NCBI GenBank assembly: GCA_963700055.1
Contig: CAVOWH010000004.1
Coordinates: forward strand, 141,250-205,249
Reading direction: 5' to 3'
Origin: an uncultured delta proteobacterium
GTDB lineage: Bacteria > Desulfobacterota > Desulfobacteria > Desulfobacterales > SpSt-501
Length of the DNA stretch: 64,000 nucleotides
The translations under genes were made by a program, and so were the position numbers. A model generated the notes under the pieces. That model was not told where the DNA came from. It made no database searches and saw only the letters and a program-made list of their open reading frames with translations. Below, one piece after another: positions 29,566 to 51,840 of the stretch; the stretch's first letter is position 1; the number at the start of each line of letters is the position of its first letter.

Positions 29566-29586
29566 CGACCATGAGAGGAGTGCGCC

Positions 29587-31891: not shown

Positions 31892-34800
31892 TTAGATCTT
31901 CACGATGTTGACCATGAAGGCCTTGGTTTCAGGGATGCGGGTGTTGGGGTCTCCGGTCGACGGCGTGAGCAGGTTGATGCTCTCCTCCTTGCCGCTTTCC
32001 GGCCAGCGCCAGCCGTAGTGCCACGGGAAGCCGACCTCGTGCACGACAAGGTCACTCAGCTTGAAGGGCTTGAAGCGCTTGGTGACGATGGCGGTGCACT
32101 CCACCGTACCCCGCGCCGAGACCGCCTTGACCCGCTGGCCGTTCTTGATCTGCTTGAGGGCCGCCAGCTCCTCGCTGAGCTCGACGAACATCTGCGGCTG
32201 GGCCTCCATCAGCCAAGCCTGGGGCCGGGTCATCAAACCGGTCTGCCAGTGCTCACTTACCCGGTAGCTGGTGCCCACGTAAGGATAGCGCGGGTCGCAG
32301 GTGGCGAAGGCGTCGGCCTTGCCGCCCCACACCGGGGCCACGGGGCTCATGCGCTGGGCGTTCATGTAGTTTTTTTCCACCGGGCACTCCAGCGGCTCGT
32401 AGTGTTCCGGGAAGGGGCCGTCGTTGAGACCCGGGCCGAAAATCTGGGCGAAGCCGTGGCGGGTCATGATGAACGGCCAGCGCGCGGCGGAATTCGGGTT
32501 CTTCAGGTCGCCCAGCGGCGGCCAGGGGCCGTCGGGCACATCGCCCACCCACTTGCTGCCGTCCCACTGAATGACCCAGTCCTTGCGGTCGCGCGGCTGC
32601 CCCTGCGGGTCCACCGATGCGCGGTTGTAGATGATCCGCCGGTTGACCGGCCAGGCCCAGGCGAACTCGGGGTAAAGGCCGATGTTGTTGGGGGCGTCCT
32701 GCTGGCTGCGGCGGGCGGCCATGTTGCCCTTGTCGGTGTAGCTGCCGCAGTAGATCCAGTTGCCGGAAGCCGTGGTGCCGTCGGCCTGGAGGAACGCGAA
32801 GCTCGGCACCAGGGAGCCCTTCTTGTAAACCGTGTCCCCCACCTTCACGTCATCCAGGAAGTAGCCGTTGATCCACTTGGCCACCTGGTGGGGGTCGAAC
32901 TCGCCGTGCGAATTGGCGTAGTCCCACTTAAGGTTGAGAACGGGCTCGGGGAAGGCCCCGCCCTCTTTCTTGTACAGCTCCCTGATCTTGTTGCCCAAAG
33001 CCAGGATGATGTCCCCGTCCGGGCGGCTCTGCCCCATGGGCTTGGGCCCGGCGTAGCGCCACTGCATCCAGCGGCCGCTGTTGGTGATGCTGCCCTCTTT
33101 TTCGACCGAAACGCAGGCCGGCAGCATGAACACTTCGGTCTTGATCTTGGCCGGGTCCACGCCGGGGCCGTGCCAGAAGGAGCCGGTTTCGTTGTCGAAG
33201 AGGTTGACGTTCACCATCCAGTCGAGCTTGGCCATGGCCTCGCGGTTCTTGCCGGCGTTCGCCCCGCTGCAGGCCGGGTTCATGCCCCAGGCGAAAAAGC
33301 CCTTGATGGACCCCTTGAGCATCTCGTCGAAGAGATCCAGCCAGCTGTAAGCCTTGCCGGCGTCGAGCTTGGGCATCCAGTTATAACCGAACTCGTTTTC
33401 CTTGGCGGCGGCCTCGCCGAAATAGGCCTTGAGCAGGCTGACCATGTACTTGGGCTCGTTCTGCCACCAGTTGGCGCTGAGCGGGTCGGTGCTCTTGGGC
33501 CGGCGCTTGAGGTAGTCTTCCAGCTTCGGCCAGTTGGTGGCCGGTGTCGCCAGATACCCGGGAATAATGTGGAAGAGCAGGGCCGCATCGGTGGACCCCT
33601 GCACGTTGGACTCCCCGCGCAGCGCGTTCACGCCGCCGCCCGCCACGCCCATGTTGCCGAGCAGGGTCTGAATGATGGACATGGTGCGGATGTTCTGGAC
33701 GCCCACGGTGTGCTGGGTCCAGCCCATGGCGTACATGATGGTGCCGGCCTTGCCCTTGGCGCCTGTCGCGGCATACGTCTTGTAGACTTCCACGAGGTCC
33801 TTCTCAGGGGTGCCGGTGATCTTGGAAACCAGGCCCAGGTTGTAGCGATCGTAATGGGCCTTCATAAGTTGGAAGACGCAGCGCTTGTCTTGCAGGGTCA
33901 GGTCGCGCTTGGGCACGCCGTTGGCGTCCATCTGCAGGGCCCACTTGCTCTTGTCGTAGGACCGCTTCTGGGCATCGTAGCCGGAAAAAAGCCCGTCCTT
34001 GAAATCGAAACCCTCGCCCACCAGCATGCTGGCGTCCGTGTAGCCGACGACGTACTCCTCGTCGGAAAGCTTGTTGTCGATGATGTACTTGATCATCCCG
34101 CCCAGGAAGGCGATGTCGGTCCCGGAACGCAGGGCCGTATAGATGTCCGCCTTGGCCGAGGTGCGCGTGAAGCGCGGATCCACGTTGATCATCTTGCCGC
34201 CCCGGTTCTGGGCCTCGGTGACGTATTTCATGGAAATCGGGTGGTTCTCGGCAGCGTTGCTGCCCATGATGAGAATGACGTCGCTGTTCTTGAGATCGAT
34301 CCAGTGGTTGGTCATCGCGCCGCGTCCGAACGACTCTGCCAGAGCCGCTACCGTGGCGCTGTGTCAGATACGGGCCTGGTGTTCGATGTACACCAGGCCG
34401 ATGGACCGCAGAAACGCCTGGTAGATCCAGCACTCCTCGTTGTCGAGCGCCGCGCTGCCCACCGAGGCGATGGCCTCCGTGCGATTGACCGTCTCGCCCT
34501 TGGCGTTCTGGGCCGTGAAGCTGGCGTCGCGGGTGGCCTTGACCCGTTTGGCGATGGTATCGAGCGTCCAGTCCCAAGTCACCGGCTTCCACTCTTTGGC
34601 TCCGGGCGCCCGGTACATGGGCTGGGTCAGCCGATTCTTGTTTTCGGCCAGCTGCGAGAGCGAGGCGCCCTTGGAGCACAGGGCCCCGCGGTTGATGACG
34701 TGGTTCGGGTCGCCTTCGATGTTGATGACCCGGCCGTCCTTCTGGCTGGTTGACACGATGGCACCACATCCCACCGCACAGTAGCAGCAGATCGTGGTGG

Positions 34801-34936
34801 TTTCCTTGGCGGCCTTGGTCTTGAGCTCCCGGGCATGGGCCATGACGGGTTTGAGATCGGATCCCAGGCCGCTGAATGCCACCCCCGCCGCGGCGGCACC
34901 CGTGACCTGGACAAACTGCCTGCGTGTCAGTTCCAT
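31892..34936 (-). CDS. fdhA: Tat-exported Mo/W formate dehydrogenase alpha subunit, selenocysteine-containing (TGA at 34364-34366)
   Basis: Two ORF-track pieces join in frame across TGA: IEHQARI-U-HSATVAALAESFGRGAMTNHW. Also Tat motif TRRQF, CCYCAVGC [4Fe-4S] motif and LRGESNVQG. 1014 aa. Confidence 0.97.
34332..34346 (-). promoter_or_regulatory. Bacterial SECIS hairpin
   Basis: GGCUCU-GGC-AGAGUC stem-loop starting 17 nt 3' of the UGA. Confidence 0.8.
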
Positions 34937-35114: not shown

Positions 35115-35161
35115 GTCGATAATACTTTGTCCTTATACGACGACGGTATCTTCGATGTCAA
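35115..35161 (-). promoter_or_regulatory. Candidate fdhA promoter overlapped by a ModE-like palindrome
   Basis: Minus-strand TTGACA-N18-TATAAG (35161-35132); GTCGATAATACTTTGTCCTTATACGAC (35115-35141) has inverted arms. Confidence 0.45.
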
Positions 35162-35205: not shown

Positions 35206-35541
35206 TCATTGCCTGGTTTGGCGCAGAATGAGGTCTCCGACCCCGGGAAGTTCTATCGATAGCGCTTTTTCGGCCGGGATGAGTTGCGCCACCATGACCC
35301 CTCCGGTCTTGAAGTGCAGCCAAAGGGCGCCGCTGCGCTCTTCCCAGCGCAGCGGCGTGCTTTCCTGGTCGGCCGACCATTGGCCTTTGCCGCCGGCCTG
35401 AAGGATCAGCGTCACCGCGCCTCCGGGGTCGGTTCCCGTTTGCCCCATGTAGCGCCCTTCCCAAACGGACCCGGATTCACATGACGCACACAGAAGCCCG
35501 ATCAGCAGCAGACCCGCCAGCAGGCGATAGGGTCGCCTCAT
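35206..35541 (-). CDS. Hypothetical lipoprotein
   Basis: Lipobox LCASC; beta-rich body; 4-nt overlap with the MauE/DoxX gene. Confidence 0.75.
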   Translation of the reverse strand: MRRPYRLLAGLLLIGLLCASCESGSVWEGRYMGQTGTDPGGAVTLILQAGGKGQWSADQESTPLRWEERSGALWLHFKTGGVMVAQLIPAEKALSIELPGVGDLILRQTRQ

Positions 35542-36023
35542 CCCTCCACCTCCTGCAGGGCTTTAAAAACTCTGCCCTCAAGCTGCAGGGCGGATGGGAA
35601 AAAATAAACCTGCAGCGCCATGACCAGCCAGAGCAGGTCGCGCGCCAGCGTGTCCCAGCCCAGAGGCTCCTCTACCGAGGTGAAGCACCCGCACCCGATG
35701 GGAATGCCTCGCAACAGGGTGATCAGGATCGCCAGGCTGAAGAGCACCAGCAGGCCTCCAATTACGGCTGCCGCGGATCTGGTGCGAACGCCGAGAACCA
35801 GCAGAACGCCGCAAGCCAGCTCGGTCCACGGCATGATCAGGGCCATGAAGTTCACCGCCCAGTAAGGCACCAGCTGGTAACTTGCGATGGTTTCGGCGAA
35901 CTCGCCGGGATAGTTGATCTTGTACATGCTGGCGTAGATGAACACCCCGCCCACGTACACGCGCAGCAGCAGCCCCAGCACGGGGTGGGTGATCGATGCC
36001 GTCAGCCAGCCGGGCCATTTCAT
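35538..36023 (-). CDS. MauE/DoxX-family membrane protein
   Basis: LLRVYVGGVFIYASMYK, LIMPWTEL and GIPIGCGCF. Confidence 0.9.
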   Translation of the reverse strand: MKWPGWLTASITHPVLGLLLRVYVGGVFIYASMYKINYPGEFAETIASYQLVPYWAVNFMALIMPWTELACGVLLVLGVRTRSAAAVIGGLLVLFSLAILITLLRGIPIGCGCFTSVEEPLGWDTLARDLLWLVMALQVYFFPSALQLEGRVFKALQEVEG

Positions 36024-37762
36024 GGCGACACCGCAAAGCCTTTCTCTTCCCAGGCCGCCAGGCCGCCTTCCAGGACCTTGACCTGGTCGTGGCTCTGCAG
36101 CAGGCGCCAGGCCACTTCGTCGTCGTACCGTTTGCTGATGGTGCGGCCGTAGATCAGCACCACCTGCTCGGGCTTGAGCGTCGGGCCGAGTTTCATGGGA
36201 AAGATCACGTCGAACAGCGCCGCCGGGATGTTGACGGCCTCGGCGATGTGCTTTTGCTGGAACAGTTCGGGCGGCCGGGCATCCACAAGAACGGCCTCGC
36301 TGCGGGACAGCATTTGATGCGCCGTGAGCACATCGACCCGGGGGGCCTGGGCCTGGAAAACGGCTTCCGGCACAACGGGGATGCCGTTCGGGCTGGAATA
36401 GTTGAATGCCAGCGCTAATACAGCGGAGATGATCACCATCAGGATCACGTCGGCCGGGCGAAAGCGCCCCGCCCGTTCGACCTCGCGCTGGATGAGCTGC
36501 TTCAGGCGGTTTTTGGCAACCTCCAGAAGCCGAATCTGGTGGCGGGCCTCGGTGAGGTCGGCGATGGTCCGGCGCAGGTCCGCATTGGTGCGGCGCAGAT
36601 CCTCGTTGAGGGCCTGGATGGTTTCGAAGGCGCGCGCATTCTTTAAAAACGCCATCCAGTTGACCGTCAACCCCCGCAGAAGCTCCCGCGCTTCCGCGGG
36701 CAGCGCCGACCCGCTCAGGGGCGGGCCGAGGGCGGCCATGCCCAGCAGTGAATCATCCACAGTGAACAGCGCCGCGGTGTGGACGGAAAAACCCAGCTCC
36801 GATTCAGGCAAGGCGGCCGGCGGGTCGAGGATGAAACCGGCCGACATCGGTGCCAGGCGCCGCTCCTCGGTCGCCTGGAACCCGCGGTAGAGGATCTTTT
36901 CAGCCTCCTCGAGAGTCCATTCCCGGAGCGCCGGGATACCGCGGCCGGCGGAACGGACCGCCCGGCTCTGCCGGTCGCAAAGCAGAACGCACCCCCGGCT
37001 TGCACCGAAGGTGCCCATCAGCGTCAGCAGGAAGGCTTCCAACAGGTTGTCGGTCGCGACGAGCGGGCTCAGCTCGGTGTTGAACTCATAGAGCGTCTGC
37101 AGGTGAAAGATCTGCCGGTCCAGGGTCGCGCGCGCCCTGGCGGCCTGGCGCTGGGAATCCTGAAGCTCATCGCCCTGGCGGCTCAGGCCGGCGCTGAGAT
37201 GCTGGACCTGGCGGTGGAAGAGGTTCTGCGCCAGGGCGTTGGCCATCGTCCCGGCCAGGTTGAGCAGGGCGGTCATATCCGCCTCGCCGAAAGCCTCCGC
37301 CGTAAGCCTGGGCCCAAGGGCCGACAGCAGCGCATAGTGGCCGTCCACCTTTTGTTTGAGGACGACCGCGGTGTCGGCCGGCAAGAGCCCCGGGTCCGCC
37401 GCCTGTGCGGGCAGAACGAATTCGGCATGGCGGGGCAGGCTGTGCTCGGGCAGATAGTGTTCGGCAATGCGAGCCAGGTTGCGTTCGCAGGCTTCGGCCT
37501 CCGGTCCGCTGAGCCCTCGCTGGGTGAGGTGCCCTTGGCGTGTTCGGGCATTCATCAGGACGGTCAGCCCGCGGGTGACCCCGAAGAGGCCCATGGCGGT
37601 GAGCAGGACGGTCTCCATGATCCTGCGGGGCTGATTGAGGCCGGAGAGCTCGCAGGCGACATCATGTAGGGCTTTCAGGTGAAACACCCGTCTGTCGAGG
37701 TCTGCCTGCGCCCGGGAGGCCTGCTCTAATGCCTCCCTTAATGCGGATTCCGCGGCGGCCAT
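36020..37762 (-). CDS. Tandem GAF-like domains + coiled coil + TM + rhodanese-homology domain lacking the catalytic Cys
   Basis: Start MAAAESAL (37762). Internal repeat DRRVFHLKALHDVACELS / DRQIFHLQTLYEFNTELS; TM VILMVIISAVLALAF; LVDARP, HIAEAVNIP, LIYGRT and VLEGGLAAW. Confidence 0.8.
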   Translation of the reverse strand: MAAAESALREALEQASRAQADLDRRVFHLKALHDVACELSGLNQPRRIMETVLLTAMGLFGVTRGLTVLMNARTRQGHLTQRGLSGPEAEACERNLARIAEHYLPEHSLPRHAEFVLPAQAADPGLLPADTAVVLKQKVDGHYALLSALGPRLTAEAFGEADMTALLNLAGTMANALAQNLFHRQVQHLSAGLSRQGDELQDSQRQAARARATLDRQIFHLQTLYEFNTELSPLVATDNLLEAFLLTLMGTFGASRGCVLLCDRQSRAVRSAGRGIPALREWTLEEAEKILYRGFQATEERRLAPMSAGFILDPPAALPESELGFSVHTAALFTVDDSLLGMAALGPPLSGSALPAEARELLRGLTVNWMAFLKNARAFETIQALNEDLRRTNADLRRTIADLTEARHQIRLLEVAKNRLKQLIQREVERAGRFRPADVILMVIISAVLALAFNYSSPNGIPVVPEAVFQAQAPRVDVLTAHQMLSRSEAVLVDARPPELFQQKHIAEAVNIPAALFDVIFPMKLGPTLKPEQVVLIYGRTISKRYDDEVAWRLLQSHDQVKVLEGGLAAWEEKGFAVSP

Positions 37763-37767
37763 GGTTT

Positions 37768-38325
37768 TCAGCGCACCAACTCGTTGATCAGTTTGAGGAA
37801 TGCGTCCAGGTCCTCGACGATTCCCATGTGGGTGTGCAGGACCTTGCCGTTCGGGTCCACGAGCAGGGTGAAGGGGGTCCGGGGTTCCCCCAGCAGCTTG
37901 TGGACGTCGAAGCGCGGGTCCGGGACGACCGGGAAGCTGTACTGCACCTGCTCGTACAAATATTTGATCTCGTTTTCGTTTCCTCCGGCGGCGAGCGCCA
38001 GCATCTTGACCTGGCCCTTCAGCTTGCCTTTTTCGATCCGGTTGAACAGCGTATTGAACAGGGGCGCCTGCCGATAGCACTGCGGGCAGTAAACGCCGAT
38101 AACTTCAAGCAGCAGCAAGCGGCAAGGGATATCCGCCAGCCGGAAGATCGCCTGGCGGATGCCGAGGTATTCCCGCGCCTTGTCGGCGGCCGGCGCCTGG
38201 AGCTCGAAGGCCGGAAGGGTGTCGCCCTTCTTGGGCAGGCCGGCACACCAGGCCGGACCAGCGGCACTTGACCACAAGATGCCGATTACGGGGAGCACAT
38301 TCAGGATAAACTGCAATGGTTTCAT
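37768..38325 (-). CDS. Exported TlpA/AhpC-TSA-like redoxin (CPQC)
   Basis: Signal peptide, KGDTLPAFEL, VIGVYCPQC, FPVVPD and TPFTLLVD. Confidence 0.85.
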   Translation of the reverse strand: MKPLQFILNVLPVIGILWSSAAGPAWCAGLPKKGDTLPAFELQAPAADKAREYLGIRQAIFRLADIPCRLLLLEVIGVYCPQCYRQAPLFNTLFNRIEKGKLKGQVKMLALAAGGNENEIKYLYEQVQYSFPVVPDPRFDVHKLLGEPRTPFTLLVDPNGKVLHTHMGIVEDLDAFLKLINELVR

Positions 38326-38371
38326 CACATCCCCCCTCAAGATAAACCCTATCAATACGGAATCAGGCCTG

Positions 38372-39079
38372 TCATCCCAGCGCCTCTTCCAGGGAGTCCA
38401 CTACCAGCACGATTTTCGAAAGCCCGACAATCTCAAAAACTTTGCGCAGGTTTTCGGACAACTCGGCCACCACGACATGGCGGCCTTGTTTCTGGCTTTC
38501 CAAAAGAAGCTGGGTCAGGATGGCGATCCCGGCGCCGTTGATGGCGGCATTCTCCAGAAAATGCAAAACGATGCGGGGTTTGTTGAGCGCCAGGGCCTCC
38601 TGGTAGAGTGCCTGGAACCGGGCTTCGGCTTTGGCGGTGATATTGCCTTGAATCACAATCACGGCGGCCTGCTCGGTCGGCTGGAGAACCATTTCCGTCG
38701 CCTGTTCGCTGGCCAGGCGCCGGCGCTCCCCGGCGCGCCGGATCGCCTGATCGAGCAGGTGGCGCTGGATGGGCTTGTTGATGAAATCGGTGGCATCCAG
38801 GTTCAGGGCTTGGATAGCCAGGTCCATATCGCCGTGGCCGGTGATGACAATGACCTCCACCGAAGGATCGATCTCCTTGATCCGCTTCAGGACCTCGATG
38901 CCGTTCATGCCTGGCATCTTGATGTCGGTCAGCACGATGGTCGGACGCTCGCGGTTGAAGACCTCCAACCCCTCCTGGCCGTTTTCCGCCGTCAGCACGT
39001 CGTAGCCATACGCGGCCAGCGTCAATCGAAACATCATCAACGTGGGTTTCTCATCGTCGATGACCAGAATCTTTTCCAT
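38372..39079 (-). CDS. Response regulator: REC + STAS
   Basis: VIDDEK, LTDIKMPG and INKP; C-terminal STAS (VIQGNI...INGAGIAIL...KVFEIVGL). Confidence 0.9.
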   Translation of the reverse strand: MEKILVIDDEKPTLMMFRLTLAAYGYDVLTAENGQEGLEVFNRERPTIVLTDIKMPGMNGIEVLKRIKEIDPSVEVIVITGHGDMDLAIQALNLDATDFINKPIQRHLLDQAIRRAGERRRLASEQATEMVLQPTEQAAVIVIQGNITAKAEARFQALYQEALALNKPRIVLHFLENAAINGAGIAILTQLLLESQKQGRHVVVAELSENLRKVFEIVGLSKIVLVVDSLEEALG

Positions 39080-39137
39080 GCCATGACCTCATTTTTTCAT
39101 CTCAAGTCATCACTGTTGACCCGCCGGTCAGGGCGGG

Positions 39138-41156
39138 TCATGCGACGGCAAAACTGAGCTTGAAGGTCGTGCCCATGCCCTCCTGGCTCGCCAGCTGAAT
39201 GTCGCCCCTGTAATCTTTGACGATCCCGTAAGTGATGGCCAAACCAAGGCCCATATCGATGCTGCTTTCCTTGGTGCTGAAAAACGGCTCGAAGATCTTG
39301 TCCCGGACCGCTTCGCTGATGCCGATGCCGTCGTCCTCGACCTCGGCCACCACCCGATCGCCTTCTTGGAAGGTACGAATGAGGATCCTGCCGGCCGGCC
39401 GGCCGGGCAGCCGTCCCTTCTTTTCGCTGATGGCATCCCGCGCATTGGTGACCAGGTTGAAAAAGACCTGCTGCAGCCGGTTGTCGTGCGCCATGATGGC
39501 GGGGTTCTCCCGGCCGAGATCGAGCTCCATGCGGATGTTCTCCAGCTCGAACTGCCGGCCGACCAAGGAAAAAACCGCCTGGATGGGTTTGTTGATGTCC
39601 ACCCGCTCCATGACGAGTTCGGCCTTGCGGCCGAAGGAACGCAGGGTGTTGATGATCTCGGCCGCCCGGTCGACCTGGCTGCTCATCTCGGCGACCACCT
39701 GATGCAGGTCCTTCGGAGGAATCTCGCGCTGTTGCTCGACCATCATGCTCAGGAAATCGCTGCCCATTTTGATGGCGTTGAGCGGCTGGTTCAACTCGTG
39801 GGCGATGCCGGCGGACATTTCTCCGAGTGACCCCATCTTGCTCGCCTGGACCAACTGGGCGTCCTTTTCGATCATCTCGGTGATGTCGGTCGAGGCCAAC
39901 ACGATGGCCAGCTGGCCCTTGTATGCGATGTTGCTGGCATGCAGATTCACGTAAAAAGGCGTATGGCCTTTCTTGTAGTGCAGCGCCTTGGGGTATGTGA
40001 CCAGCCCGTGGGTTTCCCCCTGATCCTGGAGCGATTGAAAGTACTCGTGCGTGTGCTCGGGGGCCAGCTCGGTGAAGGCTTTCCCGATCAGCTCATCCCG
40101 GCTGTAGCCATAGACCTCCACGGCCCGCGGGTTGGCGTCAATGATTTCGAAGGTTTGCGGGTTCACGACGAAGATGGGGTCCGGGCCGCTGTCGAAGAGG
40201 GAGCGGTATTTCTTTTCGGATTCGCGCAGGCGCCGCCGATAAAGCCGGATGCTCCAGATCATGTTGTAAAAGGCGTCCGCCAGCTGCGCCACCTCGTCGC
40301 CCTTTTGGCGTCGGTAGAACCGGCAGTCCCGGCACACGGGGTCGGTGCCTGAAATTTCAGCGCCTCCATCCACGACGGCCAGCTCCCCATCCAGGCGCCG
40401 GCAGGGGACATCGGGGTTGACGAAGGCCGGGCAGTCCAGGGGTTGGCCGGCATCCGTCCCTTGCTCCGCGTCCAGTTTCACATCGAAGTTGCCCTTGCTC
40501 AACTCGTCCGAAATCTGGGTCAGCTTGGAGATCGGCATGGTGATGTATTTGGCGATGCGATGGGTGATGACGAAAATGATCACGACCACCAGGGACAGAA
40601 ACCCCAGGAACGTGGTGCGCAGCTTGCCGACCAGCTGGTCGATATGGTCTTTGTTGAGCCCCACGTGGACGGTGCCGATGCGATAGATCCCCTGCGTAAT
40701 AGGGATGGCGATGTCGTAGGCCATCTGGGCGCCGATCCGGAAGAGCCGCACGCTCTTGGCTTCATCCGGCGGGACCCGGTTGGCCAGGCGCAGGGACTCG
40801 GGGAAGGGTCGCGTGAGGGTGTGGCTGAGGACCTGGTCCTCGCGGTCGCTCACGAAGATGTAGGAAACCAGGTGCTGGCGCTCCTTGAGCTTGGCCTCGT
40901 CGAAGATCAGGCTGAGCAGTTCGGGGTAGTTTTTGTCAAGAATGTAACCGCTGCTGCGCTCGGCGATCGTGCGGCCGATCGCAATGCCCCGCAGCTCGAG
41001 TTCGTCGATCAGGTTGTCCACCAGGATCCAGCGCGCCAGCATGGCGATGACAACGCTGATGATCAGGATGACCGCGAGGATAGAGAAAAAGATCTTGTTT
41101 TTGAGGCTGATATCTCGGAAGCGCCTGGCGGCTTCCCGGATGAAATCACGTTTCAT
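39138..41156 (-). CDS. Membrane sensor histidine kinase (periplasmic domain, HAMP, PAS, HisKA, HATPase)
   Basis: Two TMs, IAHELNQPL, QVFFNLVTNA, DDGIG, FEPFFSTK and MGLGL; Cys-rich insert inside the HAMP domain. Confidence 0.93.
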   Translation of the reverse strand: MKRDFIREAARRFRDISLKNKIFFSILAVILIISVVIAMLARWILVDNLIDELELRGIAIGRTIAERSSGYILDKNYPELLSLIFDEAKLKERQHLVSYIFVSDREDQVLSHTLTRPFPESLRLANRVPPDEAKSVRLFRIGAQMAYDIAIPITQGIYRIGTVHVGLNKDHIDQLVGKLRTTFLGFLSLVVVIIFVITHRIAKYITMPISKLTQISDELSKGNFDVKLDAEQGTDAGQPLDCPAFVNPDVPCRRLDGELAVVDGGAEISGTDPVCRDCRFYRRQKGDEVAQLADAFYNMIWSIRLYRRRLRESEKKYRSLFDSGPDPIFVVNPQTFEIIDANPRAVEVYGYSRDELIGKAFTELAPEHTHEYFQSLQDQGETHGLVTYPKALHYKKGHTPFYVNLHASNIAYKGQLAIVLASTDITEMIEKDAQLVQASKMGSLGEMSAGIAHELNQPLNAIKMGSDFLSMMVEQQREIPPKDLHQVVAEMSSQVDRAAEIINTLRSFGRKAELVMERVDINKPIQAVFSLVGRQFELENIRMELDLGRENPAIMAHDNRLQQVFFNLVTNARDAISEKKGRLPGRPAGRILIRTFQEGDRVVAEVEDDGIGISEAVRDKIFEPFFSTKESSIDMGLGLAITYGIVKDYRGDIQLASQEGMGTTFKLSFAVA

Positions 41157-41163
41157 GGCCGGC

Positions 41164-42489
41164 TCAGCGAGGTGCGTTCAGCTGGGCCTTGATGTCCGCC
41201 CAGGCTTTGATCAGGGAAAATTGCCCGTTCTCGAGTCGGGTGAAATAAACGCGATCCAGCCCCTGGTGATCGCTCGCGCTGAAGGCGATGTTGATCCCGA
41301 GCCCCAGGGACAGGTCATGGATCGATTCGATGGCGTCGATGAACCCCCCCCGGGTGAGGTCCGCGCCGGCCCGCGCAAGGCCTTCAACCAGCACCCGGGC
41401 GTTGATGAACCCCTCGAAACCCACGAAGTTGGGCTGGTCTTCCGGGTAGTGGCGCTTGAGCAGCGTGACATAGCCGTCCGGCCCGGCCAGCAGCGGACTG
41501 GGGTCCTGCCGGTCCGGGGGCGGGACCACCTGGGACATGATGACGGTAATGCCGTGCTGGTTTTCAAGCCGCCTGGCCAGCTCGTCGGCCCCGACGAAGG
41601 ACACCAGGTAAAACACCGGGCGAAAACCCATCTCGTTGGCGAGCCGGATGAATTTGGCACACGGATCGTAGGTGCCGATCATCACCACGGCCTCAGCCCC
41701 CGAAGTCACGATTTTGTTGAGCCCATCCTGCACATCCAGGATGCCGCGGTTGTAGGATCCCCCCGCCACCGGCGCCAGATTGAACTGTTTCAACGCCAAC
41801 TCTGTCCCGGTCAGACCATCGAAGCCGTAGGCGTCGTACTGGTAAAAGACGGCGATCTTCCGTAACCCCAGATCGTCGATCAGATGCCGGACGGCGGCAC
41901 CGGTTTCCTGATAATAGGAGGCCCGCACGTTGATCAGGTGGCGGCTGAACGGCTCGCGCAACGCGTTGGCGCCGGTAAACATTCCCAGCAGGGGAATGCG
42001 GGCCTCCTCGATCATCGGGAGAACCTTGACCGTGGTAGGGGTGCCCACATAGCAGAAAAGGGCAAACACCTGGTCGTCGATGATGAGCTTCTGGGTATTC
42101 GCCATGCACATGGGCGGGTCGTAGCTGTCGTCATAGGCTACCACCTTGATGGTGCGGCCGTGAACCCCGCCTTGTTCGTTGACGTGGTTGAGATAACTCA
42201 TCGCCCCTCGAAACGTCTGGGTGCCGAGAAAGCTGGCGTGCCCTTTGAGGGCAAGGGATGATCCCAGAATGATCTCCTGCGCGGTCACACCCGTGCTGAC
42301 GGCTTCCGGTGCCGCGCTCTCATCAGAGCCATGGCACCCGGTCAATATGCACAAAAAACAAATGAACATTACAAGGCGTTTGCTGAGTATTCGCCGTAAG
42401 GGAAAACGCCCGCGTCGATCGCTGACAGGTATCGTGCCGGTGGCAGCTGCTTGTTCCGGAAAGCCGTGGCATAATTGAAGCGGATTCAT
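41164..42489 (-). CDS. Stand-alone Leu-binding-type periplasmic binding (lipo)protein
   Basis: IILGSSLALKG, GGVHGRTIKVVAYDDSYDP, VGTPT and EGFINA; lipobox LTGC (alternative start 42369); no permease or ATPase nearby. Confidence 0.88.
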   Translation of the reverse strand: MNPLQLCHGFPEQAAATGTIPVSDRRGRFPLRRILSKRLVMFICFLCILTGCHGSDESAAPEAVSTGVTAQEIILGSSLALKGHASFLGTQTFRGAMSYLNHVNEQGGVHGRTIKVVAYDDSYDPPMCMANTQKLIIDDQVFALFCYVGTPTTVKVLPMIEEARIPLLGMFTGANALREPFSRHLINVRASYYQETGAAVRHLIDDLGLRKIAVFYQYDAYGFDGLTGTELALKQFNLAPVAGGSYNRGILDVQDGLNKIVTSGAEAVVMIGTYDPCAKFIRLANEMGFRPVFYLVSFVGADELARRLENQHGITVIMSQVVPPPDRQDPSPLLAGPDGYVTLLKRHYPEDQPNFVGFEGFINARVLVEGLARAGADLTRGGFIDAIESIHDLSLGLGINIAFSASDHQGLDRVYFTRLENGQFSLIKAWADIKAQLNAPR

Positions 42490-42655: not shown

Positions 42656-43063
42656 ATGGCTCTGAACCCGCAGGAACTGAAAGGGCTGGTCGATTCGACG
42701 CCCGATGTGGCGGTTTTGCTCAATCTCACCGGCTATTATGCGAAGCGCCAGCTGCCCGAAAAGGGCATGGACAGCGAGGTCGTGTACGATTGCCCGCGCA
42801 CCCAGGTGATGGTCAGGACCGCCGTGAAGGGCACGCAGATCGGCGGCCACTTTCACAGCGTATCCGACGAGATCGTCATCGTCGTGGGCGGCCGCGGTGA
42901 AATCCTGGTCAACGGCGAATGGAAGCCGGTGAAAAACGGTGATGTCCATGTCTGCCCGCGCGGCATCGTTCACGATACCCGGGCGCTGGATGAAAATCTT
43001 CAATACATATCCGTTTTCACCCCGCACCTTCCGCCCGGCACGGATATCAATTGGATCAAGTGA
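42656..43063 (+). CDS. Cupin-2 domain protein
   Basis: HFHSVSDE...GRG and PRGIVHD; RBS GGAGG. Confidence 0.88.
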   Translation: MALNPQELKGLVDSTPDVAVLLNLTGYYAKRQLPEKGMDSEVVYDCPRTQVMVRTAVKGTQIGGHFHSVSDEIVIVVGGRGEILVNGEWKPVKNGDVHVCPRGIVHDTRALDENLQYISVFTPHLPPGTDINWIK

Positions 43064-43503
43064 CCATGATGGAAACGGCCGTCTTTGGAGCTCCGTCCGG
43101 GACGTCCAGGGTTGCCATTCTGAGGTTCTTGGGGATGATAAAGCAGGCTCTTCGGGGAGTGGCCCCCCAGTGCCGTGCTGGGCTGATCGATCCAGGTCTT
43201 AAAGCTGTCATTGTCTTCAAACACCTCCCTCCCCCTGGCGACGACTTCTGCTATTTGGAGGATGTGCTCGGAGACGACCCTGTCGAAGTGCTCCTTGGGT
43301 GCGTAGCGCTGAATCGTGCGCTCCGTCACCGGAAGCAGCGCCGCCATTTTGCTGACAGGCAATCCCAAGAATTTAGCCAGATACAGAAGGGACTCTTTGG
43401 AGACTCCTCTTCGCCCAAGGTCAATAAGATCCATCCGCGTCCGGACCTCCCGGCCAAGGGGCTTTTTCCCACCGAGCAACTGAGTGAGGCTTGAAGTCGG
43501 CAT
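43000..43503 (-). pseudogene. Xre/MbcA/ParS-family (DUF2384) antitoxin with lost C-terminus
   Basis: LIDLGRRGV, LPVTERTIQR, GREVFE and WIDQPSTALGGHSPKSLL, then non-homologous sequence; no RES toxin follows. Confidence 0.7.
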
Positions 43504-43873
43504 AACGCCTCCGCCTTTTAGTACGATATGTGTCTTAAATGGTACTGACAAATGTCGTGCCCGTTAAGGGCGATGGTGCCGGCGCAGGCAGCCAGATATT
43601 CTATACTGCAGAATGGATAAGAGGTGCCGTTTGCTGTCGTAACCGCAGCTTTCTGGGAAGTCGAGTTTACGGTGATATTTCCGAACTATCGCGATAACCC
43701 GCCGGACAACCGCAAGCAAAGCGCCGCTGAAAGTCTTGGCACACCTATCATCCCTGCTCATCTTCGCCCGGCCTAAGAGCGTTTCCTTGTCAAACTCAAG
43801 CTGAAAGGAGCTATTGACACCCAGCCCATCTCTCCAGTGATAGAAGCTTCTACTTTACTCTGGCAAAAAACGG

Positions 43874-44641
43874 GTGCAACTTGAGTTCATTTCTGGCGGA
43901 GCAATATTTTCAAGAAAACATCAGCTGACCGGCATCATGATGGCTTGCCATATGAATCCAAGTCTCAGATACACAGTTCTATTCCTGACACTGGTCGTTT
44001 TCCCCGCCTGCGTCCGGCTGCCGGAATATGCACGGCCGCGCATGGTTCAGGCAGAGGATTTGCAGCAAGAGCGGCCGGCAACTTTTACCTACCGGGAATT
44101 GACATCTGACGATTTTCGCGCGGCCTCCCTGTCGGGGCATATGGTTGAGCATGCGGAACGAATCAACGCACACGCGGCCAACCAGATTCGGTTGACCGCC
44201 GATTCTGTCTTCAGAATCACGAGCGGGGATTTATACGGACAAACCTATTTCTTCGGCAGAATCGAGCGCCTGCGATTTGAATCCGTCATGCTTCCTGACC
44301 GTTCCTGGTGGAACCCCAAGATTCCGGCTGGCATGCGGGCCTACGTGCTGCAGCACGAGCAAATCCACTTTGCGCTCACTGAGCTTGCGTCGCGGCAGCT
44401 GACTGCCGAAAGTCAAAAATGGGCTGCGGACGTTCTGGTGATACAGCCGACGCCACAGGAGGTGCGTGCGGAATTGGCCCGGCAGATCAATGAACGAATC
44501 AACTCCGCCATGGAGGCGAGCCTGAAGCGGCAGGCAGAGTTTGATGAAGACACGTCCCTGTTTATCAACCCCAAGCGGCAGCAGTGGTGGTCATGGACGG
44601 TGGAGGATGAACTCAAAAGGACAGCCCCCCTCTCTAAATGA
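43874..44641 (+). CDS. DUF922-like putative Zn-dependent protease lipoprotein
   Basis: LTSDDF, VLQHEQIHFALTE and FDEDT; lipobox-like FPAC (true start probably about 43952). Confidence 0.7.
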   Translation: MQLEFISGGAIFSRKHQLTGIMMACHMNPSLRYTVLFLTLVVFPACVRLPEYARPRMVQAEDLQQERPATFTYRELTSDDFRAASLSGHMVEHAERINAHAANQIRLTADSVFRITSGDLYGQTYFFGRIERLRFESVMLPDRSWWNPKIPAGMRAYVLQHEQIHFALTELASRQLTAESQKWAADVLVIQPTPQEVRAELARQINERINSAMEASLKRQAEFDEDTSLFINPKRQQWWSWTVEDELKRTAPLSK

Positions 44642-45133
44642 TCCGAATCCAGTGAAGTGCGGGTGTGTTAATGCGCTGCCTCTGCGCGACGTGCACAATC
44701 CGCGTCCGCTGGAGCTAGCGTTTTGGCGGGAGACCTCACGTTTTTGAAAAGCTGATATGGTTTCCTTCGCTGTCAGTATACCAATCGCAAACCGAATGGT
44801 TTATTTGTGAAATAGCACTGACGAACTATCAAACCGGCGTTCTACCTTTACTCGTCCCGATTGAGCTTAGTATTAGGCTTGTTCGTTTCTATCTCTGCCA
44901 GATATGCGCGAGCTGCATCTTTAAAGCCGCACGTGAAGTTCTGTAGGCACTCAATTAATCCTCATACTTGGGGTTTATGGGTAAGCTTCTTATAGTTCAT
45001 TGACATCATAGCCTCGGCTCTGGCCGGTTTGCGGGAGATTTCATGTGATGGATATCCTTCCCCGCAAACCAGCCGTTGATGTAACGACGACAATGGGTTT
45101 TACTTATTCGAGCGTCGTCAAGTGTGCCAAGCT

Positions 45134-45547
45134 TTACTTTTTTTGTCCGTTCCGGCACTCCAGCCTATAGTAAATGACGTTGGGGTGATTGTTTTGGCGT
45201 CTGACGACCTGTACCCAATCCATGGAGACATATTCCGTTCCATTCGATTCAACCATTGTGCAGGGTCCACCACCCTGTTCCGAGCTAAATCGCGTCACTG
45301 GGTCAGGAAACACATCCTTGAACTTCGGGTTCTTGACCATGTTGTCAACGAAGCCCCATGCCCTCTCATTCTTAACAACGATATTTGGATCGGTGTTAGC
45401 GATGAAGACTTCATTGTCGGTATCGCCCGTCTCCAAAATGACGTGGTTGAAGGTATCGTTAACCTCCATTCTTGGATCTGCGTAGACGGTTCCGAAACAC
45501 AAACACAGGACGGTTGCCATGATCACGGATAGTTTTTTCATTTTCAT
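45134..45547 (-). CDS. Hypothetical secreted protein
   Basis: RBS AAAGGAG, signal peptide ending VYA, and a Cys pair. Confidence 0.7.
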   Translation of the reverse strand: MKMKKLSVIMATVLCLCFGTVYADPRMEVNDTFNHVILETGDTDNEVFIANTDPNIVVKNERAWGFVDNMVKNPKFKDVFPDPVTRFSSEQGGGPCTMVESNGTEYVSMDWVQVVRRQNNHPNVIYYRLECRNGQKK

Positions 45548-46022
45548 AGTCTCCTTTATCTGTTGTTATTGTTAGTGGTTCAGGCTTTCAATTGTCGTCG
45601 TCACTCCCAATCCTGCGCCCCCTTTGCGGCCTTTGTTGTCGACTAAATAGAATCCAGGGCCGCTTGCGGATAAAAATTCAGCAAAAAGTGTGCCCAATGC
45701 ACCGCTTAATTATAAATGATACTATTTGGACAAGAGTTCTATCCATCGCAAAGCAAAATGTTATCACTTGTAGTAATGGAGTTGCTCAAATTAATATGCA
45801 GGCTAATTAAACTATAATAGATGGCTTTGTATAAGATGAAAGTAAAGAGGAATTCGAGGTAAATGTAGAAGCGCGACTTATAAAGTAAAGTCGAATTTGA
45901 ATGGTAGAATCTTCAAGCGGATCTCACTGCAAGAATTCACCACATCCCATGCATTTTGTATCCTGCAACGCATTTTTACGTCCGCAGTTCTCGTGAAATG
46001 AGGTGTCGTTGAACGCTGAGGG

Positions 46023-51833: not shown

Positions 51834-51840
51834 GCCTTGC

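Follow-up and report, generated by a model that had tools for sequence, protein, structure and literature searches.

Organization and conservation of the gene cluster

Seven genes (g1 to g7) occupy positions 35206-42489 on the minus strand of the window, i.e. the whole analysed stretch of 64,000 nucleotides, with genes for a formate dehydrogenase (FDH) downstream of them. An earlier note on this DNA had proposed their content from the letters alone; coordinates and strand of all seven open reading frames were verified and their domains matched. The features of the region are:

41164-42489, minus strand: g1, orphan lipoprotein from the family of periplasmic Leu/Ile/Val-binding proteins (Peripla_BP_6)
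39138-41156, minus strand: g2, membrane histidine kinase (Pfam and NCBIfam)
40326-40433, minus strand: Cys-rich insert in the HAMP region of g2 (alignment of 55 orthologues)
38372-39079, minus strand: g3, response regulator with REC and STAS domains (Pfam)
37768-38325, minus strand: g4, exported TlpA/ResA-like thiol:disulfide oxidoreductase with a CPQC motif; the open reading frame extends to 38355
36020-37762, minus strand: g5, transmembrane transducer with two GAF domains, a TM segment and a Cys-less rhodanese fold (AF2, Foldseek, Pfam)
35538-36023, minus strand: g6, four-TM MauE/DoxX membrane protein (Pfam)
35206-35541, minus strand: g7, small lipoprotein of 111 amino acids without known family
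35132-35161, minus strand: promoter-like element between g7 and fdhA (TTGACA-18 nt-TATAAG, read from the sequence)
31892-34936, minus strand: fdhA, catalytic subunit of a periplasmic, TAT-exported selenocysteine formate dehydrogenase, putative client or partner
31152-31871, minus strand: fdhB, iron-sulfur subunit (Fer4_11, E = 1e-36)
30000-30881, minus strand: fdhE, FDH accessory protein (FdhE_central and FdhE_C)

The genes are as tightly packed as the note had claimed, with gaps of at most 60 nt or 4-nt overlaps: g1 and g2 are separated by 7 nt, g2 and g3 by 58 nt, g3 and g4 by 16 or 46 nt depending on the choice of start, and g4 and g5 by 5 nt, and g5-g6 and g6-g7 overlap by 4 nt each. Its statement that no DNA-binding output is encoded was also borne out, as Pfam and NCBIfam identified no such domain in any of g1 to g7. 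The Cache domain of g2, the redoxin, the rhodanese domain, the CGC loop of g6 and both lipoproteins are predicted to be periplasmic.

Our survey covered 80 loci from 80 Desulfobacterota species, including 55 informative loci of the GAF type and 31 that were fully flanked. Conservation of the gene order had been set beforehand as a test of the proposal, and the order g1 to g7 is retained in 38 of the 55 informative loci, down to 28% identity. Within these 55, g3 is present in 55, g6 in 52, g4 in 50, g7 in 49 and g1 in 44. Median gaps from g1 to g7 are 7, 27, 39, 5, -4 and -1 nt, the 4-nt overlap of g5 and g6 being conserved, and order and overlaps are kept in Desulfobacterales, Syntrophobacterales, Desulfarculales and Desulfovibrionales. 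Since the identical order returns in dozens of species, the arrangement is far from chance. A juxtaposition of unrelated, separately transcribed genes that are merely tightly packed could invoke our consensus promoter and terminator scans, which performed at chance level, but it was rejected on the grounds of synteny, the sharing of order, orientation and overlaps by dozens of species leaving it practically no probability. The seven genes thus behave as one, in keeping with the proposal of an undescribed unit with protein-protein outputs only, and a literature search found no published description of the cluster. In a sediment metatranscriptome, contigs of relatives span g2 to g7 and fdhA. Three Desulfovibrionaceae loci (L047, L055, L062) keep g1, g2, g3 and g5 and are missing g4, g6 and g7, and therefore g5 must have at least one role without redoxin and MauE.

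Sensor and response regulator

The g1 product belongs to Peripla_BP_6 (E = 2e-48), and its closest PDB relative is 4kv7 (E = 3e-58), an entry labelled simply as a probable Leu/Ile/Val-binding protein. The true translation start of g1 is uncertain; maturation would leave a protein that begins at the lipobox Cys52, which, like the sequence of the pocket region, is strongly conserved (49 orthologues). ABC permease or ATPase genes were not recurrent beside g1 in the flanking-family survey of the cluster loci, and the amino-acid-like ligand that had been suggested is backed by nothing past this family membership. The kinase g2 contains two TM segments (residues 22-40 and 179-197) enclosing a periplasmic sCache_3_2 domain, followed by HAMP with the Cys-rich insert, PAS, HisKA and HATPase_c; its H-box and ATPase motifs are kept across 55 orthologues. 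The insert, with the pattern C-x10-C ... C-x2-C, resembles by sequence a pared-down version of the "two-CW domain" found in some orthologues: in the L051 orthologue the insert matches NF045718 (two_CW_domain) with E = 2.7e-6, under the curated cut-off, and the window insert gave no match in the same profile comparison.

In g3 (Response_reg, 1.5e-30; STAS, 1.3e-8) the residues D9, D10, D52, T80 and K102 are conserved, and the REC phospho-acceptor is thereby kept. STAS domains have a classical role in sigma-factor partner switching, which speaks for a circuit of gene expression, e.g. of fdh, in which the phosphorylated REC-STAS protein would act on an anti-sigma factor, sigma factor or other regulator encoded elsewhere. 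The input to such a circuit might be formate, tungstate/molybdate or redox state, redoxin, MauE and rhodanese would be accessories reporting the periplasmic thiol state, and g5 would signal outside-in. However, the STAS loop of g3 reads INGAG where TM1442 and SpoIIAA, which possess the phospho-serine, have MDS(A/S)G, so that this serine is replaced by glycine. In addition, RsbW-type anti-sigma kinase, PP2C and sigma-factor domains are absent from the seven cluster genes (Pfam, NCBIfam), and outside FDH no flanking family is shared by over 10 of the 80 loci. Partner switching, of which the earlier note had called STAS and GAF domains typical, is thus not supported in its classical sense, and we regard the gene-expression circuit as a whole as unlikely.

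The transducer and its sister architectures

Relatives of g5 were found in 130 species genomes. In the window protein Pfam detects a rhodanese domain alone (residues 482-574, 1.4e-11) and no GAF domain, but the GAF-GAF assignment is upheld by the AlphaFold (AF2) model (pLDDT 86), whose best PDB matches in Foldseek are the tandem GAFs of PDE5, PDE2, PDE6 and CyaB2 and phytochrome GAF-PHY (E = 5e-8 to 1e-5), and which matches rhodanese folds as well. Two homologues (P0106 and P0206) also have Pfam matches to GAF_3. The predicted cytoplasmic part consists of a helix, GAF, long helix, GAF and long helix, followed by a single TM segment (residues 436-456) and a periplasmic rhodanese-fold domain; the orientation N-in, C-out was assigned because the mean number of K+R is 4.2 ahead of the TM segment vs 0.7 behind it.

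All 77 orthologues carry glycine at the catalytic cysteine position of the rhodanese fold, and in 76 of them the periplasmic domain is entirely free of cysteine, so that its designation as a pseudo-rhodanese was correct. This largely refutes a further explanation, namely periplasmic trafficking of sulfur or selenium for repair or maturation of the FDH cofactor (e.g. putting back the W=S sulfido ligand), in which the rhodanese would serve as persulfide carrier. It could appeal to a rhodanese fold adjoining a molybdo/tungstoenzyme and to the sulfurtransferase gene fdhD in six related loci. Yet the cNMP-type relatives likewise have glycine at the catalytic position and no cysteine, and FdhA is loaded with its cofactor in the cytoplasm, prior to TAT export, and we consider this explanation very improbable. 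The loop of the window protein retains an anion-cradle-like G-R-T-x-S-K-R, a point for the gene-expression circuit, but the basic residue that closes it is unconserved (R, H or L).

The module of TM segment and pseudo-rhodanese is also found behind cNMP_binding, cNMP-GAF, REC and HisKA-REC domains. MauE directly follows such a module in 28 of the 30 loci with room downstream, and in loci of the non-GAF type a redoxin gene is usually located upstream and a g7-like gene usually downstream, so that the association of redoxin, rhodanese-like protein and MauE/DoxX, taken as established in the earlier note, recurs in the sister architectures too. The REC-STAS gene accompanies GAF-type g5 in all 55 loci and none of the cNMP-type loci. 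Because cNMP-binding, REC or HisKA-REC domains stand where the GAFs would be, ahead of an unchanging unit of TM segment, pseudo-rhodanese and MauE, inside-out signalling at g5, with variable cytoplasmic input and constant periplasmic thiol-disulfide output, is the most likely reading of these domain arrangements. Outside-in signalling, as the gene-expression circuit would have it, is hard to reconcile with sister forms whose cytoplasmic parts are pure input (cNMP-binding, REC) with zero cytoplasmic output, even if the three loci without g4, g6 and g7 fit that circuit.

Thiol-redox genes

The g4 product (Thioredoxin_8, AhpC-TSA and Redoxin in Pfam; best NCBIfam match ResA, 2e-11) has an N-terminal hydrophobic signal segment (residues 4-22) and a CxxC motif that is present in 71 of 71 orthologues, in most of them as CPxC. 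In g6 (MauE, 2e-26; DoxX, 4e-11) a CGCF motif is conserved in 73 of 74 orthologues, and loop charges place the TM3-TM4 loop outside, so that the loop bearing the CGC motif is predicted to be periplasmic. The g7 lipoprotein (lipobox Cys21) has no Pfam or NCBIfam match, and its homologues are close ones only, all annotated as "hypothetical". It occurs solely with this module, including after MauE in cNMP-type loci; its AF2 model (pLDDT 84) is a predicted eight-stranded beta-barrel with only weak fold matches (E >= 0.007), to lipocalin-like lipoproteins such as TP0435, Omp19, the NlpE N-domain and YedD.

Taken together, we judge it somewhat more probable than otherwise that the cluster is a signal-controlled periplasmic thiol-redox module. 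By analogy to the mycobacterial DoxX-SseA-SodA complex, a regulated MauE/DoxX-redoxin-rhodanese complex could instead tend many periplasmic thiols or proteins in general envelope thiol homeostasis or oxidative stress, with FDH as one O2-sensitive beneficiary or merely needed under the same conditions. In M. tuberculosis, DoxX proteins have indeed been tied to oxidative stress and thiol homeostasis, and in Haemophilus to a regulon of envelope stress (PMC6930017, PMC7907618). In the two long loci of the cNMP type (L090, L093) the four-gene effector unit receives other inputs and has RND efflux genes and an FGE-sulfatase-like gene as neighbours, which means that in general the effector module is not specific to FDH. 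Against such a general function, superoxide dismutase, peroxidase and methionine-sulfoxide reductase genes do not recur in the flanks.

Link to formate dehydrogenase

Downstream of g7, after a gap of 269 nt, follow fdhA, fdhB and fdhE. FdhA has a TAT signal, an in-frame TGA (Sec) at 34364-34366 (context ARI-TGA-HSATV) and the Pfam domains TAT_signal, Molybdop_Fe4S4, Molybdopterin and Molydop_binding, and it matches D. vulgaris FdhA chains both over the 300 residues that follow Sec (E = 3e-131) and over the C-terminal 350 residues (E = 1.1e-125). The promoter-like element would provide fdhA with a transcription start of its own and a leader of approximately 190 nt, which has no match to an Rfam family. 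Both in the window and in several other loci (including L002, L004, L006, L007, L011, L018 and L019), TTGACA with a TATA-like hexamer behind it lies 226-239 nt 5' of the ATG of fdhA. This conserved element just after g7 indicates that the FDH genes are probably transcribed as a unit of their own; the apparent promoter and long leader could be regulated, as a gene-expression circuit would demand.

FDH is located within 10 kb in 12 of the 31 fully flanked loci (5 downstream and co-directional, 5 convergent, 2 upstream), and FDH-adjoining loci cover the entire span of identities seen for g5 (29-88%). Among flanking families, fdhA, fdhB and fdhE alone are recurrent; next in frequency come additional genes for exported thioredoxin-like proteins (10 loci), a second paralogue of REC-STAS (7) and fdhD (6), and in L004 and L005 the FDH genes are sandwiched between the cluster and further redoxin/thioredoxin genes. 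The link to FDH, described before as only positional, thus amounts to more, as it recurs in three arrangements. We estimate the background of FDH proximity at ~1% per 20 kb of sequence, taking usual values for genome size and FDH copy number. General thiol homeostasis accounts well for the 19 fully flanked GAF-type loci without FDH within 10 kb, but less well for a sole recurrent neighbour that has kept its place across three or more rearrangements in several bacterial orders, above this estimated background, and we hold it to be the less probable, if serious, explanation.

An allosteric disulfide switch of FdhA has been documented (M405, C845, C872; PMC11323313, PMC11134731, PMC13397495). Equivalents of these residues are kept in 21 of the 21 cluster-linked FdhAs to which our check was confined (the window and 20 others). 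The cysteine pair is probably conserved across the whole FdhAB subclass, and its presence is therefore a necessary and non-discriminating condition. Sulfide alone might also reduce the FdhA disulfide in vivo.

Proposed mechanism

In the explanation that we favour, which as a whole falls a little short of an even chance, the cluster would be a three-layer unit with FdhAB as its preferred client. In the sensor layer the binding lipoprotein g1 would partner the Cache/PAS kinase g2, which would phosphorylate the REC domain of g3. The g3 STAS domain, itself not serine-phosphorylatable, may then contact the cytoplasmic tandem GAFs of g5, whose long coiled coils and single TM helix would relay the change outward to the Cys-less rhodanese-fold domain. 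Together with g7, this domain would gate a thiol-disulfide relay running between the periplasmic CGC loop of g6 and the CPxC redoxin g4. The preferred client in this lineage might be the neighbouring periplasmic W/Mo-selenocysteine FdhAB, and the relay would most plausibly set the redox state of the allosteric cysteine pair (equivalents of C845-C872 of DvFdhA), toggling FdhA between an O2-protected resting form and the active form without a transcriptional step. That the module operates this switch is a tentative and rather doubtful part of the proposal; we lean weakly toward electron flow in the direction of reduction, i.e. activation, of FdhA. Should this hold true, the cluster may be the on/off switch of a CO2-reducing formate dehydrogenase. 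At a broader level, the relatives of sulfate reducers share a conserved, undescribed unit whose probable function is to transmit a signal outward to a periplasmic thiol-redox module.

Gene content and conservation of the cluster

Open reading frames, strand, domains and gaps of the seven minus-strand genes at 35206-42489 of the window (g1 to g7, numbered in transcription order) were all found as the earlier note had first described them, and the formate dehydrogenase (FDH) genes lie directly downstream of g7.

Genes of the cluster and adjoining formate dehydrogenase genes (coordinates in the window)
g1, 41164-42489, minus strand: Peripla_BP_6 binding protein (Pfam, E 2e-48) with a conserved lipobox Cys; start codon uncertain
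g2, 39138-41156, minus strand: histidine kinase with sCache_3_2, HAMP carrying a Cys-rich insert, PAS, HisKA and HATPase_c
g3, 38372-39079, minus strand: REC and STAS domains (Pfam)
g4, 37768-38325, minus strand: ResA/TlpA-like redoxin, predicted to be exported, motif CPQC
g5, 36020-37762, minus strand: sole Pfam match is Rhodanese, C-terminal
g6, 35538-36023, minus strand: MauE/DoxX protein (Pfam MauE, 2e-26)
g7, 35206-35541, minus strand: protein with lipoprotein signal and no family match in Pfam or NCBIfam
fdhA, fdhB, fdhE, after a 269-nt gap 3' of g7: fdhA with TAT signal and in-frame TGA (Sec) at 34364-34366

The intervals measure 7 nt (g1-g2), 58 nt (g2-g3), 16 or 46 nt (g3-g4) and 5 nt (g4-g5), and the last two gene pairs overlap by 4 nt each, so that the genes have the arrangement of an operon, being co-directional with gaps that are short and conserved, or overlapping. 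Scans against Pfam and NCBIfam detected no DNA-binding domain in any of the seven proteins. For g5, the start was placed at the ATG at 37762, in agreement with more than 40 homologue clusters, which have a length of 580 aa and begin there; on this ground a 686-aa frame (36020-38080) that overlaps g4 was rejected.

Relatives of g5 are encoded in 130 species genomes, from which 80 loci were retrieved, and the family was found in genomes and metagenomes of Desulfobacterota only. The sequence of the window itself occurs in freshwater-sediment and wetland metagenomes. When the window proteins were used in tblastn, the order g1-g2-g3-g4-g5-g6-g7 was recovered in co-directional form in Desulfobacterales, Syntrophobacterales, Desulfarculales and Desulfovibrionales, down to 28% identity of g5. 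Flanking sequence is sufficient for 55 loci, of which 38 have all seven genes; per 55 loci, g3 was detected in 55, g6 in 52, g4 in 50, g7 in 49, g2 in 48 and g1 in 44, counts that depend on self-chosen coverage and identity thresholds and on loci that share ancestry and are not independent. Median gaps from g1 to g7 across loci are 7, 27, 39, 5, -4 and -1 nt. Chance juxtaposition of seven genes is contradicted by this synteny and can be excluded. Gene order across Desulfobacterota had been set beforehand as a check capable of overturning the proposal of an undescribed signalling and redox circuit, and it is kept.

The pair of g3 and g5 is the invariant part across loci. Some variant loci are devoid of g1 and g2, three loci of Desulfovibrionaceae retain g1, g2, g3 and g5 and are missing g4, g6 and g7, and in a subset of loci g5 has one GAF domain instead of two. 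A homologue search with a Desulfovibrio-type g5 returned five proteins and no more.

Directly upstream of the cluster, the stretch at 43000-52000 has a lower G+C content (0.47-0.54 vs about 0.60 elsewhere) and carries genes for an Xre-type antitoxin (43000-43551) and an acyltransferase (49290-50372) as well as a DDE transposase fragment (48287-49189). This region probably represents an island or a mobile-element remnant.

Sensor and regulator proteins

The binding protein g1 has the Peripla_BP_6 fold, with PDB 4kv7 as its best solved relative (E 3e-58). An amino-acid-like ligand, as put forward in the earlier note, was not adopted as a conclusion, since 4kv7 is by name merely a probable Leu/Ile/Val-binding protein. 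Genes for an ABC permease or ATPase were found neither beside g1 in the window nor as a recurrent family across the 80 loci. A separate set of Liv-type ABC genes at 14836-18108 (minus strand), within a Liv-type system at 13-18 kb and with its own Peripla_BP_6 protein (16879-18108) and two permeases, adjoins acyl-CoA ligase and enoyl-CoA hydratase genes; its presence underlines that g1 is an orphan and not a spare part of a transporter. Two related loci, L046 (3841-6144) and L051 (551-2836), have the g1 gene in tandem duplicate.

In g2, two transmembrane (TM) segments flank the periplasmic sCache_3_2 domain, for which neither the single sequence nor a 20-sequence profile gave a match in the PDB. 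The H-box (AHELNQPL) and the G-boxes are conserved in 55 orthologues, and in the REC domain of g3 the residues D9, D10, D52, T80 and K102 are conserved in 74. The two proteins thus display the sequence features of a two-component system (HisKA H-box, HATPase_c, and the acidic pocket, phospho-acceptor Asp, Thr and Lys of REC), and their genes co-occur in 48 of 55 loci at a median distance of 27 nt. LuxP-LuxQ, TorT-TorS and ChvE-VirA are sensor kinases that depend on a binding protein, and the present arrangement resembles them in that the gene of an orphan binding protein immediately precedes that of a kinase with a periplasmic sensor domain. It differs in the family of the binding protein (Peripla_BP_6) and in its output, which we propose to be non-transcriptional.

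The Cys-rich insert in the HAMP region of g2 (40326-40433, minus strand; CPAF..PC ... C..C) could be an element for metal or redox sensing that faces the cytoplasm. It forms a complete "two-CW domain" in some orthologues (those listed are from L033, L046, L051, L053 and L060), with the insert of L051 matching NF045718 at E 2.7e-6, under the curated cut-off, and it is missing in six orthologues. In the cultured Desulfoferrobacter suflitae DRH4 (L040, 3693-8593), which has g1 and g3 to g7 and lacks FDH genes within 10 kb, g1 and g3 are separated by two kinase-like frames (695 and 504 aa). A good alignment to g2 was obtained with the second alone, and a split, duplication or rearrangement of the kinase may have occurred there. 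In Pseudodesulfovibrio pelocollis SB368 (L065), g1 and g2 are absent and the cluster consists of g3 to g7.

The C-terminal part of g3 has a STAS fold (Pfam STAS 1.3e-8), its closest solved relative being the anti-sigma antagonist TM1442 (4.5e-7), with SpoIIAA at 0.09. The motif INGAG of g3 aligns to MDSAG of TM1442 and MDSSG of SpoIIAA, so that the phosphorylated Ser is replaced by Gly, and this replacement is conserved. In addition, Pfam and NCBIfam scans of the seven cluster genes detected no domain of an RsbW-type kinase, anti-sigma factor, PP2C phosphatase or sigma factor. The earlier suggestion of partner switching therefore stands with respect to the STAS and GAF folds and falls with respect to the phospho-Ser and a cognate kinase or phosphatase in the cluster: this is not a classical partner-switching module. 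What it shares with SpoIIAA/SpoIIAB, RsbV/RsbW and their response-regulator-linked versions is a STAS domain whose availability would be set by phosphorylation, and GAF domains, which are common in those circuits. Unlike there, phosphorylation is proposed to take place on the fused REC domain, and the proposed partner of STAS is a transmembrane tandem-GAF protein.

Membrane and periplasmic proteins

For g5, an AlphaFold model built from 50 homologues (mean pLDDT 86) comprises, from N- to C-terminus, a helix, a GAF domain, a 70-residue helix, a second GAF domain, a 75-residue helix, a TM segment (436-456) and a rhodanese fold. The closest PDB matches in Foldseek are the tandem GAF domains of PDE5, PDE2, PDE6 and CyaB2 together with phytochrome GAF-PHY (E 5e-8 to 1e-5), all at probability 1.0, so that the modelled protein would belong to those with two GAF domains on long helices. 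A Pfam GAF match is absent for the window g5 itself and was found in two homologues (P0106 and P0206). The predicted helix-GAF-helix-GAF-helix architecture is that of PDE2, PDE5, PDE6 and CyaB2; unlike in these, where a cytoplasmic catalytic domain follows, the last helix would lead into a TM segment and an extracytoplasmic pseudo-enzyme.

The C-terminal domain resembles the single-domain rhodaneses 3ilm and 3o3w (TM-score 0.74-0.75; Pfam Rhodanese 1.4e-11). The position of the catalytic Cys is occupied by Gly in 77 of 77 orthologues and the periplasmic domain is free of Cys in 76 of 77, which marks it as a pseudo-enzyme; with the model and its PDB matches, the description of g5 as a GAF-GAF protein with a pseudo-rhodanese is upheld. 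Lys plus Arg amount to 4.2 before the TM segment vs 0.7 after it, an asymmetry that assigns the GAF domains to the cytoplasm and the rhodanese fold to the outside. Without a cysteine in the domain, a sulfur-carrier role was rejected, and sulfur or selenium trafficking for cofactor repair as the purpose of the cluster is essentially excluded on the same ground.

The redoxin g4 is of the TlpA/ResA type (matches to Thioredoxin_8, Redoxin and ResA, and an N-terminal hydrophobic segment). Its CxxC motif is present in 71 of 71 orthologues, all of them Cys-x-x-Cys with no selenocysteine variant among them, and the NCBIfam MauD model gave no match at E < 0.01. Membership of g6 in the MauE family is indicated by a score of 93 bits against a cut-off of 27 (2e-26), a DoxX match (4e-11) and four hydrophobic segments; a CGCF motif, found in 73 of 74 orthologues, lies in a loop predicted to be periplasmic by the charge rule, and a gene for a CxxC redoxin is nearby. 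For g7, an AlphaFold-type prediction gives an eight-stranded beta-barrel lipoprotein (pLDDT 84). Its fold matches to lipocalin-like lipoproteins were not used to assign a function, as the similarity is weak (E >= 0.007).

In the mau cluster, the small multi-TM protein MauE pairs with MauD, an exported thioredoxin-fold CxxC protein, and serves the periplasmic methylamine dehydrogenase, a subunit of which requires six structural disulfides. The combination of the MauE-family membrane protein g6, the exported CxxC protein g4 and a putative periplasmic redox-enzyme client is similar. However, g4 is ResA/TlpA-like and not MauD-like, the proposed client is an enzyme that is exported by TAT in its finished state and has a single regulatory disulfide, and the mau pair comes without the signalling proteins, the rhodanese-fold partner and the dedicated lipoprotein that are present here.

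Exchange of input domains and direction of signalling

A profile search with g5 in 1.84 billion representative proteins yielded 153 at E <= 1e-30. Among these relatives, the TM and pseudo-rhodanese module also stands behind a cNMP_binding domain (many proteins of about 305 aa), cNMP_binding plus GAF, REC, or HisKA plus REC. Relatives with exchanged inputs share two invariant motifs, FN..NPNGIP behind the TM segment and VYG(R)T.S..YD, as well as the active-site Gly, which is invariant in the cNMP-type relatives too. Neighbours of the module were examined in 32 additional loci, 30 of which have contig left beyond the module gene. A MauE/DoxX gene is next in line in 28 of these 30, frequently overlapping by 4 nt; a redoxin gene is usually found upstream and a g7-like gene downstream. 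The sister family with cNMP_binding, TM and pseudo-rhodanese domains (L082-L084, L085, L089-L112) accordingly forms a unit of redoxin, cNMP-type gene, MauE and small lipoprotein. REC-STAS genes were found in 55 of 55 informative GAF-type loci and in 0 cNMP-type loci.

Since each of the exchanged domains is of a classical input or receiver type, with no cytoplasmic output left, the simplest reading is that the signal runs from the cytoplasm to the periplasm. The fusion of REC straight to the TM and rhodanese domains in some relatives fits with g3 passing a phosphorylation signal to the GAF domains of g5. These domain exchanges speak against the opposite view, namely outside-in signalling at g5 with transcription, via an unlinked partner, as the output of the circuit, and we disfavour it. 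The cNMP-binding domain at the equivalent position in sister proteins is no more than suggestive of a cyclic nucleotide as GAF ligand in g5.

The REC-TM-pseudo-rhodanese and HisKA-REC-TM-pseudo-rhodanese proteins P0339 (L081, 6001-6969), P0300, and P0301 (L086, 2153-3760) look, by their domain order, like response regulators with a solely periplasmic "output" domain. In L086, MauE and g7-like genes are located immediately after the fusion gene; L081 is without MauE.

Association with formate dehydrogenase

All flanking open reading frames of the 80 loci were clustered into families. The recurrent ones are fdhA (21-23 loci), fdhB (20) and fdhE (16), followed by exported thioredoxin-like proteins (10), a second REC-STAS paralogue (7) and fdhD (6); 10 is the highest count for any family apart from the FDH genes. 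FDH genes were seen in 25 of the 80 loci overall. Where at least 9 kb are available on each side, fdhA lies within 10 kb in 12 of 31 loci, five times downstream and co-directional, five times downstream and convergent and twice upstream and co-directional. About 1% would be expected by chance, an estimate of our own that assumes the usual FDH copy number and genome size. Loci linked to FDH are scattered over the full identity range and several orders, and the adjacency has therefore outlasted repeated rearrangement. The link had been called only positional; its recurrence in three arrangements shows that it is more than that, and functional in the sense of guilt by association. It is not obligatory, FDH genes being absent from the vicinity of 19 of the 31 fully flanked loci.

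The many GAF-type loci without FDH favour a rival explanation in which the cluster is a general module of envelope thiol homeostasis, as does the neighbourhood of cNMP-type units on long contigs, which consists of an RND efflux system (L090) and an FGE-sulfatase-like gene (L093) and not of FDH. A precedent would be the membrane-associated oxidoreductase complex DoxX-SseA-SodA of Mycobacterium tuberculosis, in which, according to two papers that summarise Nambi et al. 2015 (PMC6930017, PMC7907618), DoxX and a rhodanese-family protein act in thiol homeostasis. The present cluster shares with it a DoxX-family membrane protein beside a rhodanese-family protein. In contrast to that complex, the rhodanese fold here is free of Cys and fused to a TM helix and cytoplasmic GAF domains, the partner is a CxxC redoxin instead of a superoxide dismutase, and the unit appears, from its gene content, to be under two-component control.

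A specific role at FDH is suggested by the enzyme itself. FdhAB of Desulfovibrio vulgaris contains an allosteric disulfide, C845-C872 (Oliveira et al. 2024, as related in three later papers), whose reduction turns the low-activity, O2-protected resting enzyme active, and Met405 is conserved in the FdhA subclass that has this switch; no dedicated physiological oxidant or reductant of the switch is named in the excerpts of these papers from which the statements are taken (PMC11323313, PMC11134731, PMC13397495). The window FdhA aligns to D. vulgaris FdhA in two stretches (E 3e-131 and 1.1e-125) and has the attributes of the switch subclass, i.e., a Sec active site, a TAT export signal and equivalents of M405, C845 and C872. 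These three residues recur in all 20 other alignable FdhAs linked to the cluster (21 of 21), a necessary condition for FdhA as client and not proof of it, given that the set covers linked FdhAs only. The enzyme is periplasmic, as g4, g6, g7 and the rhodanese domain of g5 are predicted to be, and the switch described for D. vulgaris is intrinsic to FdhAB.

Further genes were observed around the cluster and FDH. Extra exported thioredoxin-like genes (WCGHC) adjoin one or the other in 10 related loci (L004, 17704-18811; L005, 17632-18805; L034, 8199-9773; and seven others), some of which also contain a second redoxin gene (L004, L005, L034 and L041); in L004 and L005 the FDH genes are placed between the cluster and two further redoxin/thioredoxin genes. 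In six loci, mostly of Desulfovibrionales, a gene of about 297 aa with a Cys-rich N-terminus adjoins fdhA (L034, 13809-14915; L063, 18086-18979; L068, L072, L074 and L079); our guess from its sequence is that it is Zn-ribbon/transposase-like. In the window, a 229-aa frame with a TTG start and no family match follows fdhE (29242-29931, minus strand) and is possibly not a genuine gene. Converging on fdhE are two PAS-PAS-LuxR (GerE) regulators in tandem (25977-27389 and 27674-28975, plus strand). Since no such family recurs in the flanks of the 80 loci, they are probably not members of the system, and they could regulate fdh locally.

Transcription of the cluster and fdhA

A promoter-like element, TTGACA-18-TATAAG, is located at 35161-35132 (minus strand) directly 3' of the g7 stop codon, followed by a leader of about 190 nt to 34937. 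Similar boxes (TTGACA-N17/18-TATA-like) occur 226-239 nt 5' of fdhA in at least seven relatives, and the leader is poorly conserved except for the ribosome-binding site. With its own conserved promoter-like element, FDH is probably a separate transcription unit. A scan for consensus promoters and terminators between 34.8 and 43.2 kb gave counts at chance level and missed this box because its -10 hexamer ends in G; it emerged from the comparison of relatives. No Rfam family matched in the window or the fdhA leader, and a Moco-type riboswitch thus does not explain the leader. Contigs from a sediment metatranscriptome with 85-95% identity cover g2 to g7 and fdhA, indicating that relatives are transcribed in situ. 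One 1645-nt contig (run X22) spans g5-g6-g7 into fdhA, but as an assembled contig, and from a library of uncertain RNA status, it is not proof of a single transcript.

Proposed function

We propose that g1 and g2 would sense some ligand, with the PAS domain and the Cys-rich insert perhaps adding the cytoplasmic redox state, and that g2 would phosphorylate the REC-STAS protein g3, whose STAS domain would then engage the tandem GAF domains of g5. Movements of the coiled-coil and TM segment of g5 would shift a periplasmic pseudo-rhodanese dimer, which, together with the lipoprotein g7, could gate thiol-disulfide exchange between the CGC loop of the MauE protein and the CPxC redoxin. The clients of the redoxin would be periplasmic, with the allosteric Cys pair of FdhA first among them. 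In its general form, as a signal-controlled periplasmic thiol-redox module, we regard this model as somewhat the better bet. The disulfide switch of FdhA as the target of the module is a possibility that we hold to be less likely than not, and we are slightly more doubtful still about the full version, a new class of inside-out device with swappable inputs, in which a Cys-less rhodanese and a relay of MauE, redoxin and lipoprotein operate the FdhAB switch.

All parts belong to known families, and MauDE, DoxX-SseA-SodA, ResA/TlpA, STAS switching, binding-protein kinases and tandem-GAF regulators each have only pieces in common with the cluster; no description of the combination was found in the literature. 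Our searches returned no paper that joins MauE, rhodanese and formate dehydrogenase, or MauE or DoxX with rhodanese and thioredoxin in the sense meant here. REC-STAS regulators were unmentioned, and nothing about such a cluster emerged from literature searches on locus tags and fitness data of D. vulgaris and G20.

If the full model were true, a two-component system would set the activity of a periplasmic enzyme post-translationally, and the relay would be the missing physiological operator that activates, or protects from O2, the W/Sec formate dehydrogenase (CO2 reductase). FdhAB-type tungsten/selenocysteine enzymes are among the best biological catalysts of CO2 reduction, and an allosteric disulfide governs their activity and oxygen tolerance; the module beside FDH in many sulfate reducers and syntrophs is a testable candidate partner for this disulfide. 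FDH aside, the data point to modular outward signalling, by phosphorylation and cyclic nucleotides, that controls periplasmic redox chemistry, and they provide function-level context for MauE/DoxX proteins, Cys-less rhodanese domains, REC-STAS regulators and a new family of small lipoproteins.
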